Assembly: GCA_021498125.1 (NCBI GenBank)
Contig: JAIZWL010000003.1
Coordinates: 60,457 to 124,456 of the forward strand
Origin: Candidatus Thorarchaeota archaeon
GTDB taxonomy: Archaea > Asgardarchaeota > Thorarchaeia > Thorarchaeales > Thorarchaeaceae
Direction: 5' to 3'
Length of the DNA stretch: 64,000 nucleotides
The first letter of the stretch is position 1; every line of letters starts with the position of its first letter. Made by a program: the position numbers and the translations under genes. Below the pieces are notes generated by a model that did no database searches, was not told the DNA's origin, and saw nothing but the letters and a program-made list of their open reading frames with translations. Of this stretch, positions 46,485-48,941 are shown one piece after another.

Positions 46485-47504
46485 GTGACACGTACAATAC
46501 TGAGGAATCCAGCCATGAATGTGGACACTGATCCCCACAACGCGGAGCGAACTGGTGGTCAGCGTAAGCGCCGGAAGTATATCCCCCATCTGGCCGAGTT
46601 CTACTTCAGACCCACATTTGATTGGACAATGGACGAAGCGCGTAGGCTCTATGAACAGGCACCCTCCCATGTAGGACCCTTTGAGATTGACACGGTCAAC
46701 TTTGAGGACTGTGTATCAGGTATGGCCCGGATGCCACAGGAATCCGTAGATCTTGTGATTGCAGACCCCCCCTTTGGTATCGACTTTGATGGGCGGAGTG
46801 GGGTCTATAATCGGGATAGTTCTTTTGTGATCGAAGGGTACGGTGAGGTGTCAGAGGAGTATGAGGACTTCACCCAGAGATGGCTGCAAGAGGTAGCACG
46901 TGTCTTGAGTCCGACAGGATCGGCTTACATCTTCAGTGGATGGACCAATCTAGAGGCAGTGCTCACCGCCGCGCGTATTGCTGGCCTCCACATACTCAAT
47001 CATCTTGTCTGGCACTATTCATTCGGAGTCTACACCCGGAAGAAGTTCGTCACGAGTCACTATCATATTCTTCTGCTTGTCAAGAGCGATGATGATTACA
47101 TGTTCAACAAGATTGAGAACTATCCTCAAGATGTCTGGATCCTAAATAGGCCGTACCATCATGGACGTGCAAAAAATGGGACCAAGCTGCCAGTGGAACT
47201 TGTGCAACGCTGTATAGACTATTCTTCCCGGCCGGGTGATCTTGTATTTGACCCGTTCATGGGCAATGGTACAACTGCTGTGGCTGCAAAGGGCAGTTAT
47301 CGTCACTTTCTTGGGTTTGAACTCAATCCACAACTTCGGGAGATAATTGACAGTGCCGTCCTGAAAGTGCGGCCCGGCCAGTTCTATGTTCCATACTCTG
47401 AGCGACTACCCTCTATTGAGGAGCTTGCACGCCAGTATCCACGTGCGTACAAGGAGTATCTTCGTAGAGAGAGTCTATCTGGTAAGATAGAGGAGGTCGA
47501 ATAA
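46485..47504 (+). CDS. Beta-class DNA methyltransferase (motif IV DPPF preceding motif I FDPFMGNGTT), probably N6-adenine
   Basis: DLVIADPPFGIDFDG and LVFDPFMGNGTTAVAAKG in the beta-class order. Start could be ATG 46515 or 46629. Confidence 0.75.
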   Translation: MTRTILRNPAMNVDTDPHNAERTGGQRKRRKYIPHLAEFYFRPTFDWTMDEARRLYEQAPSHVGPFEIDTVNFEDCVSGMARMPQESVDLVIADPPFGIDFDGRSGVYNRDSSFVIEGYGEVSEEYEDFTQRWLQEVARVLSPTGSAYIFSGWTNLEAVLTAARIAGLHILNHLVWHYSFGVYTRKKFVTSHYHILLLVKSDDDYMFNKIENYPQDVWILNRPYHHGRAKNGTKLPVELVQRCIDYSSRPGDLVFDPFMGNGTTAVAAKGSYRHFLGFELNPQLREIIDSAVLKVRPGQFYVPYSERLPSIEELARQYPRAYKEYLRRESLSGKIEEVE

Positions 47505-48941
47505 TTGGCTGATGATCTGTTCCGTCTAATCATGGAAGAACGAGATAGGCTCGGTGATGTGGTCTCGTCCAGCGACATCTTTGACCGGCAGTTCGGTTCA
47601 GAATTGGCAGCATGGGAACTTCAGTTGCAACGCGAGTTCAGAGAGCATGTTCACGGGCGGATCTATAGATTTCGAGGTTTTGCCCATTATACTCGCGACA
47701 CCTCGTTAATCATGCTCACGCCAAGTCCATGGTTGGCAGATGGTGTCTTCATCTACATTCGCAGGGAACAAGAGCTCCCCCCTGAGGGCGGGTATGTAGA
47801 GATCACTGGTCAGCGCATTGTTGCCCCGGGGCCACTTCAGAAGACAAACACAACACTCGAGGCTTTTACAGCCGATTCTATTAAGATACAGCAGCTCGAT
47901 TTTGTGAGAGAGGTGCGTCCTCCTTTCACACTCAAAGAGTTGTCCTCTCTCTTATTCGAACGGGTGGGAATGGCTGAGGCAAGTAAGAGAGTCTTTGCTC
48001 TCTTGTTTGTTTCAAGCCCTCCCTTTGAGGGTACTGTTGGTGGTCTCACTGCCGGAATTCAGGCGCTGGCATCAAAGGCTCAGGTGAAACGCCTGATGAC
48101 CTTCATGCGACGAGTATTACCCCCCACTCTTCGTGGACGCTGGAGTGCCTATCGTACCGTCCGTGGTGTTCGCGTATCTACTCCTAAGATCTGGCGTCTG
48201 GATACTGGTTCCATCTCGGCGGCGCGATTAAGACAGCTCGCGTTGAAGCGTAAAGATCCATTAGGCTTTCAAGAGGTCTCAGTAGGTGCGCTTACTGGTA
48301 CTGGTACCTCTGCTCTTCCAGATGTCCCGATGGCCCTGACCTCCGAAGACTTTTGGATCGAGACCCGCAATGCCGAGGAACTGCGTCTTCCCATTCTCAA
48401 GTCCGCAATCACATTTCAGTTGTTGGCGCCATCGGTCACTCGACGCTCTGTTGACTCCTCTACCAAACATATTCTGGATCGTCTGGAACGACTCCAAGAC
48501 TCCTTTGGACTGGACGCTACTGCCCTCTCTCGTGGTGGTGTCCTAGATGCAGATGCTCTGGGACGGCCATTGAGCGCACTACGCCTGGCCCGGTCTTCAG
48601 CACGTGCGGACTGGAAAGAGAAGATCACTCTGAGGGAGCTAAAGCATGCATGGAATAGGGTACTGGAGCCTGCTCTCAAGGAGTATCTTGAGATCACAGC
48701 CCTGCACAAGGAGGCCGAGACCGAGTGGGGTGGTGCTCAGAAATTTGAGAGACTGAATACTAAGGTGCTACGTGCGTTAAAGCGTCTTGATCCCGGGAAA
48801 CGTGGTGGTCTTGGTCCTACTCTTGATGAGATTGCTGCGGAGGCCTCTGTGGAGCGTCATACCGCTGCTGAGGCATTAGAAAAAATGAAAGACTCGGGTG
48901 TAGTGTATGAACCACGCCCGGGTCATTATAGGCTTGTATAG
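47505..48941 (+). CDS. Hypothetical 478-aa protein with C-terminal winged-helix-like segment, translationally coupled to the methyltransferase
   Basis: TTG start directly after the MTase stop; no NTPase or nuclease motif recognised; C-terminal GLGPTLDEIAAEASVERHTAAEALEKMKDSGVVYE is wHTH-like. Confidence 0.4.
   Translation: MADDLFRLIMEERDRLGDVVSSSDIFDRQFGSELAAWELQLQREFREHVHGRIYRFRGFAHYTRDTSLIMLTPSPWLADGVFIYIRREQELPPEGGYVEITGQRIVAPGPLQKTNTTLEAFTADSIKIQQLDFVREVRPPFTLKELSSLLFERVGMAEASKRVFALLFVSSPPFEGTVGGLTAGIQALASKAQVKRLMTFMRRVLPPTLRGRWSAYRTVRGVRVSTPKIWRLDTGSISAARLRQLALKRKDPLGFQEVSVGALTGTGTSALPDVPMALTSEDFWIETRNAEELRLPILKSAITFQLLAPSVTRRSVDSSTKHILDRLERLQDSFGLDATALSRGGVLDADALGRPLSALRLARSSARADWKEKITLRELKHAWNRVLEPALKEYLEITALHKEAETEWGGAQKFERLNTKVLRALKRLDPGKRGGLGPTLDEIAAEASVERHTAAEALEKMKDSGVVYEPRPGHYRLV

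Follow-up and report, generated by a model that had tools for sequence, protein, structure and literature searches.

A Thorarchaeota operon of an orphan DNA methyltransferase gene and a gene for a predicted ATPase-dead MCM paralogue

Inactivated paralogues of replication ATPases underlie much of the control of eukaryotic replication, MCMBP and several ORC subunits being examples, and the MCM2 protein of Methanopyrus kandleri is an inactive homologue of the minichromosome maintenance (MCM) protein. MCMBP, a relative of MCM in eukaryotes that is devoid of Walker motifs, acts as a chaperone of MCM2-7 (PMC10317167), and in a recent survey of the Asgard replisome MCM counts as a single-copy gene (PMC12680538). 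The locus discussed here belongs to a Candidatus Thorarchaeota archaeon and lies in a stretch of 64,000 nucleotides (GenBank assembly GCA_021498125.1, contig JAIZWL010000003.1, positions 60,457 to 124,456), which was analysed as a whole and is called the window below. It consists of a gene for a beta-class DNA methyltransferase (MTase) followed directly by a gene for a 478-aa protein, named X hereafter, from a family that carries no annotation. The explanation that accounts best for all of the results, and that is probably correct, is that the two genes form a Thorarchaeota operon of an orphan MTase and an ATPase-dead MCM paralogue acting in replication. What is new is an inactivated MCM paralogue family without annotation in the archaeal relatives of eukaryotes; a literature search found no description of the X family or of a methyltransferase-MCM operon.

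Single-sequence searches of X against Pfam, NCBIfam, PADLOC and the PDB gave no family match, only weak matches to winged helices. Over 200 homologues, full-length at about 479 aa, were found at 56-95% identity, with names almost all from Thorarchaeota or the wider Promethearchaeota, and a profile search run exhaustively against 1.8 billion representative proteins returned 74 matches to the family, about 45 of which are full-length (440-490 aa) at about 20% identity. According to their source names, some of these distant homologues come from Odinarchaeota, Methanomethylicaceae and Bathyarchaeota. A diverse alignment of the family, called A2, was also built, the 44 members of which were individually searched for families; a separate profile search with A2 recovered almost solely Thorarchaeota proteins. 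Because both the MTase and X have many orthologues at 55-95% identity, neither open reading frame (ORF) is a chance one.

The relationship of X to MCM emerges from its predicted structure. From a shallow alignment of Thorarchaeota sequences, AlphaFold2 modelled the middle of X poorly (predicted local distance difference test, pLDDT, 61), and the model built from the diverse alignment had a pLDDT of 87 and a predicted template modelling score of 0.78. With the X model as query, the best 50 matches in Foldseek were all MCM chains, with E values down to 4e-12 and a probability of 1.0, and because the alignments extend over 420-680 columns the match is collinear and full length, from the oligonucleotide-binding (OB) fold to the winged helix. 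Thus, X is modelled with the complete order of MCM domains, namely an OB fold followed by an AAA+ core, a lid and a winged helix.

Profile comparisons provide separate information about the C-terminal part. The Thorarchaeota profile of X matched the C-terminus of an MCM in the PDB (8x7t_D, E 9e-4), and the profile of the whole family matched SsoMCM (4fdg_B, E 1.1e-6) and another MCM (E 2.2e-6). Furthermore, alignment of A2 with an MCM by hhalign gave a probability of 95.8% and an E value of 7e-9 over residues 356-478 of X, and individual members of A2 matched MCM_C (10 of 44), MCM_WH_arc (9 of 44) and MCM_lid (6 of 44). These matches indicate that the C-terminal lid helix and the winged helix of X are homologous to those of MCM. 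PF00493, the MCM box, had no match in X or in the family members searched. Taken with the predicted fold, the profile matches identify X as a shortened, ATPase-dead paralogue of MCM; this identification appears solid, and its function is one that we infer by analogy, as discussed below.

The motifs that power MCM proteins are missing from the family. A pattern scan of 90 X-family sequences, in which an MCM control sequence validated only the P-loop and SRFD patterns, found Walker A in one sequence and Walker B in one, and neither the P-loop of MCM (GDPGxxKS) nor the sensor-1 pattern in any. SRFD strings occur in 12 of the 90, in the linker that precedes the winged helix and away from the position of the arginine finger. 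The zinc-binding motif of the MCM N-terminal domain is not present in X either, and the window protein contains zero cysteines and hence no zinc finger. Because the Walker A and B motifs have been lost, X is predicted to be incapable of acting as a motor, and no helicase activity is expected of it.

What the family has kept instead is a set of hallmarks of its own, visible in A2: VSSPP...GG, with P172, G179 and G180 invariant; SDxP; GxPxSxLRLAxSxAR; and the C-terminal winged helix. The first of these spans residues 169-180 of X, immediately ahead of the first strand of the AAA+-like core. A preliminary description of the stretch, made from the sequence alone, had rightly recorded that the 478-aa protein is devoid of Walker, HNH and GIY-YIG motifs and ends in a winged helix; it had also considered that an SPPF tetrapeptide and a DPLGF...GTGTS segment could be the traces of a degenerate second methyltransferase module. 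The SPPF is not an MTase motif IV but a part of the family-wide VSSPP...GG hallmark, GTGTS is not conserved even within Thorarchaeota, and a second module is refuted by the fold and by the pattern of conservation.

The upstream gene encodes a protein that matches PF01555 (N6_N4_Mtase) with an E value of 2.1e-38 and 132.9 bits, against a curated cut-off of 26.7. Because the catalytic motif IV, DPPF, is N-terminal to the AdoMet-binding motif I, FDPFMGNGTT, the enzyme has the beta-class order, as the preliminary description had recognised. In an alignment of 67 MTases, composed of the window sequence and 66 Thorarchaeota orthologues, ADPPF is kept in at least 98% of the sequences and DPF-GNGTT is kept across the orthologues. 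The latter were found in Thorarchaeota only, with 56-94% identity and about 321-329 aa; because 329 aa is the annotated length of P0244, the orthologue with 94% identity, the likely start of the window gene is the ATG at 46515, which gives a protein of the same length. The nearest solved structures are those of CcrM, MboIIA, RsrI and DpnA (CcrM 6pbd_A, E 1.7e-24), and the aspartate of DPPF, together with CcrM, RsrI and MboIIA as best matches, suggests that the target base is probably N6-adenine. The MTase also possesses conserved N- and C-terminal extensions specific to the Thorarchaeota lineage, which could be docking segments. Judged by its sequence, it is an intact orphan beta-class DNA methyltransferase, ordinary in itself.

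The two genes meet without a gap, as the TAA stop of the MTase abuts the TTG start of X in the same reading frame; the overlap that had been reported between the two codons does not exist. Among the measurable Thorarchaeota loci, the distance between the genes almost always falls between -25 and +65 nt, the exceptions being four of about 1.25 kb and one of 176 nt. In the window and in L007 and L010 the MTase and X are in frame with zero gap and parted by one stop codon, and readthrough of this codon would yield an MTase-X fusion; elsewhere in Thorarchaeota they overlap out of frame or stand 3-65 nt apart. A stop codon is present between them in L032 as well, hence two genes rather than a fusion. 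The four long distances are due to an insertion of about 1.25 kb (L018, L022, L031 and L064), which in L064 (positions 4750-5871) holds an ORF of 373 aa that by the look of its sequence is an ATP-binding cassette (ABC) ATPase of the oligopeptide-transporter type. The occurrence of the insertion in four genomes means that the operon tolerates interruption.

The history of the pair was read from a survey with one genome per GTDB species, which covered 77 Thorarchaeota X loci with neighbours mapped by tblastn, 66 of them assessable for the MTase. The MTase was upstream of X in 59 of these 66, and the order X-gelsolin-(Fpg)-M20 peptidase was kept almost everywhere, with gelsolin as a near-invariant neighbour that follows X in most of the 77. 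The identities of the MTase and X to their counterparts diverge in parallel (94/95, 77/77 and 71/65%), and the linkage is held over a span in which X falls to about 55% identity. Furthermore, the GC content of the pair, overall and at third codon positions, is native, and none of the marks of an island that were looked for around it (tRNA genes, flanking repeats, odd composition) was found. The two genes make up a chromosomal operon that Thorarchaeota have inherited vertically, and not an island. The preliminary description was correct in placing the pair between actin and gelsolin genes, while its wording that the pair is inserted there is misleading in view of the near-invariant adjacency of X and gelsolin and the want of flanking repeats or tRNA genes.

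The operon link is old, but X can dispense with it. Seven Thorarchaeota loci, belonging to four scattered lineages, have no MTase within 6 kb upstream of X, and of the X positions with a conservation of 95% or more in the MTase-bearing loci, 90-97% are retained in them; X is under purifying selection independently of an adjacent MTase. In one such genome (L068) actin is immediately upstream of X with no MTase, and in L057 an iron-sulfur (Fe-S) gene abuts X, the same gene that precedes the MTase in L064. Two genes upstream of X in L057 there is also an ORF of 549 aa (1437-3086, minus strand) that resembles TnpB/OrfB-type transposon proteins by the look of its sequence, which has a Cys-rich, zinc-ribbon-like segment at the C-terminus.

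Outside Thorarchaeota, no methyltransferase was found beside the X homologues in any of the contexts examined, which include Odinarchaeota, Bathyarchaeota and Methanomethylicaceae. In the Methanomethylicaceae contig JAVZFI010000016.1 (L006, positions 650-3550) the X gene is located between two AT-rich intergenic regions and adjoins cdc6/orc1; TFB follows beyond cdc6, and cren7 lies on the opposite side. Both intergenic regions carry direct and inverted repeats that resemble origin recognition boxes (AAACGAAATAAG / ACGAAATGAGGGTGT), including an inverted pair of 36 nt (3169-3204 and 3393-3428) and a direct repeat of 104 nt. By its sequence the region looks like a chromosomal replication origin with a pseudo-MCM gene inside. 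The same layout of X, cdc6 and repeats occurs in L090, but the two fall in one 90%-identity cluster and count as one observation from one lineage.

A further distant homologue, in L087, has a 1.27 kb non-coding stretch upstream (4728-6001), with an 86-nt direct repeat at 4976-5061 and 5399-5484 whose copies are 80% identical. Around it there are many toxin-antitoxin genes (PIN/VapB, MazE, HicA).

The coordinates of the locus and of its immediate neighbours in the window are given in Table 1.

Table 1. Features of the MTase-X locus, in positions of the window
Feature	Coordinates	Strand	Details
Actin homologue, upstream neighbour in the window's subclade	45211..46317	+	PF00022, E 6e-122
MTase ORF, beta-class (N6_N4)	46485..47504	+	339 aa in its longest form, GTG start at 46485; PF01555
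Motif IV DPPF, catalytic	46764..46775	+	MTase aa 94-97
Motif I FDPFMGNGTT, AdoMet-binding	47247..47276	+	MTase aa 255-264, 3' of motif IV
Gene junction	47490..47507	+	Shine-Dalgarno-like GAGGAGG 47490-47496, N5, TAA 47502-47504, TTG 47505-47507; read from the sequence
X, predicted ATPase-dead MCM paralogue of 478 aa, family without annotation	47505..48941	+	
Predicted N-terminal OB fold of X	47643..47894	+	About aa 47-130; five strands, no zinc finger
Predicted degenerate MCM-type AAA+ alpha/beta core of X	47922..48434	+	About aa 140-310; has VSSPP...GG; no Walker A, Walker B or sensor-1 (AxAN)
Predicted AAA+ lid helices of X	48435..48734	+	About aa 311-410; GRPLSALRLARSSARA aligns with the MCM IRLxEAxAR helix
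Predicted C-terminal MCM-type winged helix of X	48747..48938	+	About aa 415-478
Two-domain gelsolin, convergent with X across 5 nt	48947..49543	-	PF00626, E 5e-32

Among the Thorarchaeota loci, the window, L003, L008 and L068 are the only ones where actin adjoins the pair; in L040 it is more distant. On the other side, the ORF of a Fpg/Nei DNA glycosylase (49520-50434) is over-extended and overlaps the start of the gelsolin gene; because its match to Fapy_DNA_glyco begins at aa 36, at MPELPELEV, the true start should be near 49625. Upstream of actin are a phosphohydrolase with HD and HD_assoc_2 domains (41826-43406, plus strand) and a protein with an RNase III domain (43380-44093, minus strand), which overlaps by 4 nt a gene for a 269-aa protein (44090-44899, minus strand) that matches the PADLOC CARF model with an E value of 1e-12 and, more weakly, Csa3 and PadR-type models. 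This cluster (41826-44899) is kept wholly or partly beside actin in L003, L008 and L068, and may represent a signalling module of the CARF type; there is no CRISPR array in its vicinity. Elsewhere in the window there are two multi-domain flavin/Fe-S oxidoreductases read as HdrA-like, of 1150 aa (4277-7729, plus strand, with a C-terminal MvhD/FlpD domain) and 1078 aa (9730-12966, minus strand); genes of histidine utilisation, namely urocanase (29728-31758), histidine ammonia-lyase (32561-34105) and an amidohydrolase (34111-35385); and a TiaS gene (60246-61580). The window is ordinary chromosomal housekeeping DNA.

The mechanism proposed here starts from a vertically inherited paralogue of MCM in which subdomain A, the zinc finger and both Walker motifs, A and B, are missing. 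This protein would bind DNA or MCM and take part in chromosome replication without a catalytic activity of its own. By analogy with MCMBP or with M. kandleri MCM2, it might be a regulator, a chaperone or an origin- or fork-associated subunit. In the Thorarchaeota lineage an orphan MTase would have been recruited upstream of X and co-translated with it, a coupling that plausibly ties genome methylation to replication and that X itself could do without.

Several points weigh against this proposal. The middle domain of X has no PF00493 match, so its assignment to MCM depends on the predicted structure. The replication role is argued from homology and from a single origin-adjacent lineage, and the other distant homologues of X are located in unrelated and variable neighbourhoods. 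The MTase and X may be functional partners, the evidence for this being the conservation of the operon; when X from MTase-bearing and MTase-less genomes was compared, no interface-like signal was seen, as the positions relaxed only in MTase-less loci are seven, scattered and without pattern. Finally, the MTase-less status of the seven loci refers to the 6 kb upstream of X. The suggestion in the preliminary description that the pair is an orphan epigenetic module stands in part, and agrees with the lack of a nuclease partner and with vertical inheritance.

The alternative that survives best is a coincidental operon, in which X, a pseudo-MCM, acts in replication or chromatin and the MTase is an unrelated orphan or remnant that landed upstream and shares nothing but the transcript with it. 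Such an arrangement would fit the loss of the MTase on at least four independent occasions without visible change in X, its absence from every X context examined beyond Thorarchaeota, and the tolerated insertion between the genes. However, chance neighbours would hardly remain linked in 59 of 66 loci, mostly at gaps of -25 to +65 nt, while X diverges to about 55% identity, nor would they be expected to diverge in parallel, and the conserved lineage-specific extensions of the MTase, as possible docking segments, also speak against it. This alternative is unlikely, although it retains some weight.

A more ambitious version of the preferred reading, an operon of an orphan MTase and a replication-associated MCM paralogue, is that X would be the first of a group of ATPase-dead MCM paralogues of Asgard and TACK (Thaumarchaeota, Aigarchaeota, Crenarchaeota and Korarchaeota) archaea that act on MCM or on origins, and the prokaryotic counterpart, possibly the precursor, of MCMBP, with Thorarchaeota X tethering the MTase to the replication machinery for replication-coupled methylation. 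In this extended form the proposal is speculative and its truth doubtful. Membership of X in MCMBP itself is not supported by sequence, as no match to MCM_bind (PF09739) appeared in 10 diverse X members searched to E<=10 or in the window protein searched to E<=1, and as MCM_bind was not among the 25 most frequent of the 64 families matched by the 44 members of A2. A WhiP/Cdt1 identity was considered separately and rejected, as WhiP, a crenarchaeal protein (PMC3607249), has a tandem winged-helix architecture and X has an MCM fold.

It is very improbable that X is a transcription factor or nucleoid protein made of a winged helix and an OB fold, with no role in replication and an MCM-like core that is a mere scaffold, because the collinear fold match over the full length singles out MCM, the sequences of the lid and winged helix are nearest to the MCM C-terminus and not to regulator families, and the Methanomethylicaceae gene is within an origin-like region beside cdc6. 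Least credible of all, to the point that it can hardly be entertained, is the preliminary description's favoured idea of a Type II-like restriction-modification (R-M) or other defence pair, in which the MTase guards self DNA and X is a novel nuclease or effector of unrecognised type: the PADLOC Type II model MTase_II does match the MTase (E 3.5e-57), the MTase is tightly juxtaposed to and co-directional with a protein without annotation, and X has domains of DNA-binding type (OB fold, winged helix), but X folds like an MCM, shows neither the fold nor the motifs of a nuclease and matches nothing in PADLOC, and is confidently homologous to a non-nuclease family, though a DNA-related one; no cognate restriction endonuclease was found beside the MTase, the other neighbours being actin, gelsolin, Fpg and M20 peptidase; the locus is inherited vertically in a housekeeping gene order, with native composition and without flanking marks of mobile elements; a putative ABC ATPase gene splits the MTase from X in four genomes; and X is kept and conserved in the seven genomes whose 6 kb upstream hold no MTase and stands alone in other phyla, which, assuming that the MTase has not been relocated elsewhere in the genome, means that it is not a restriction endonuclease.

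The locus should accordingly not be catalogued as a new R-M or defence system, and a false lead is removed. The spread of X across the sampled Thorarchaeota and in Odinarchaeota, Bathyarchaeota and Methanomethylicaceae suggests that non-catalytic derivatives of MCM were already to be found in archaea related to eukaryotes. The family offers a testable candidate for the regulation of MCM in Asgard archaea, and the operon that joins it to an orphan MTase may point to epigenetic marking linked to replication in archaea.

Compared with canonical archaeal MCMs (SsoMCM, 4fdg; PfMCM, 4r7z), X is about 200 residues shorter and lacks subdomain A and the zinc finger, as well as Walker A, Walker B, sensor-1 and a PF00493 match, and its core is too small for the h2i (helix-2 insert) and PS1 (presensor-1) hairpins. 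M. kandleri MCM2 is likewise a short MCM homologue (PDB 3f8t), but the profile comparison revealed no significant sequence relationship to X (E 0.26), and this protein is euryarchaeal whereas X constitutes a separate family of Asgard and TACK archaea; we know of no methyltransferase linkage for M. kandleri MCM2. As for the enzyme, the MTase is similar to the orphan adenine methyltransferases of the CcrM/Dam type in being a PF01555 beta-class protein, vertically conserved in one clade and without a cognate nuclease. It is not a CcrM equivalog, as it scores 102 with the NCBIfam CcrM model against a cut-off of 830, and it differs from this group in its Thorarchaeota-specific terminal extensions and in sharing an operon with a predicted MCM paralogue. 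A Type II R-M system also has a beta-class MTase adjoining a co-directional second gene; here, however, the second gene does not encode a nuclease, the locus is neither mobile nor patchy, and the partner survives without an adjacent MTase. A parallel to the kind of protein proposed for X would be MCMBP, found in the eukaryotes, the sister domain of the Asgard archaea.

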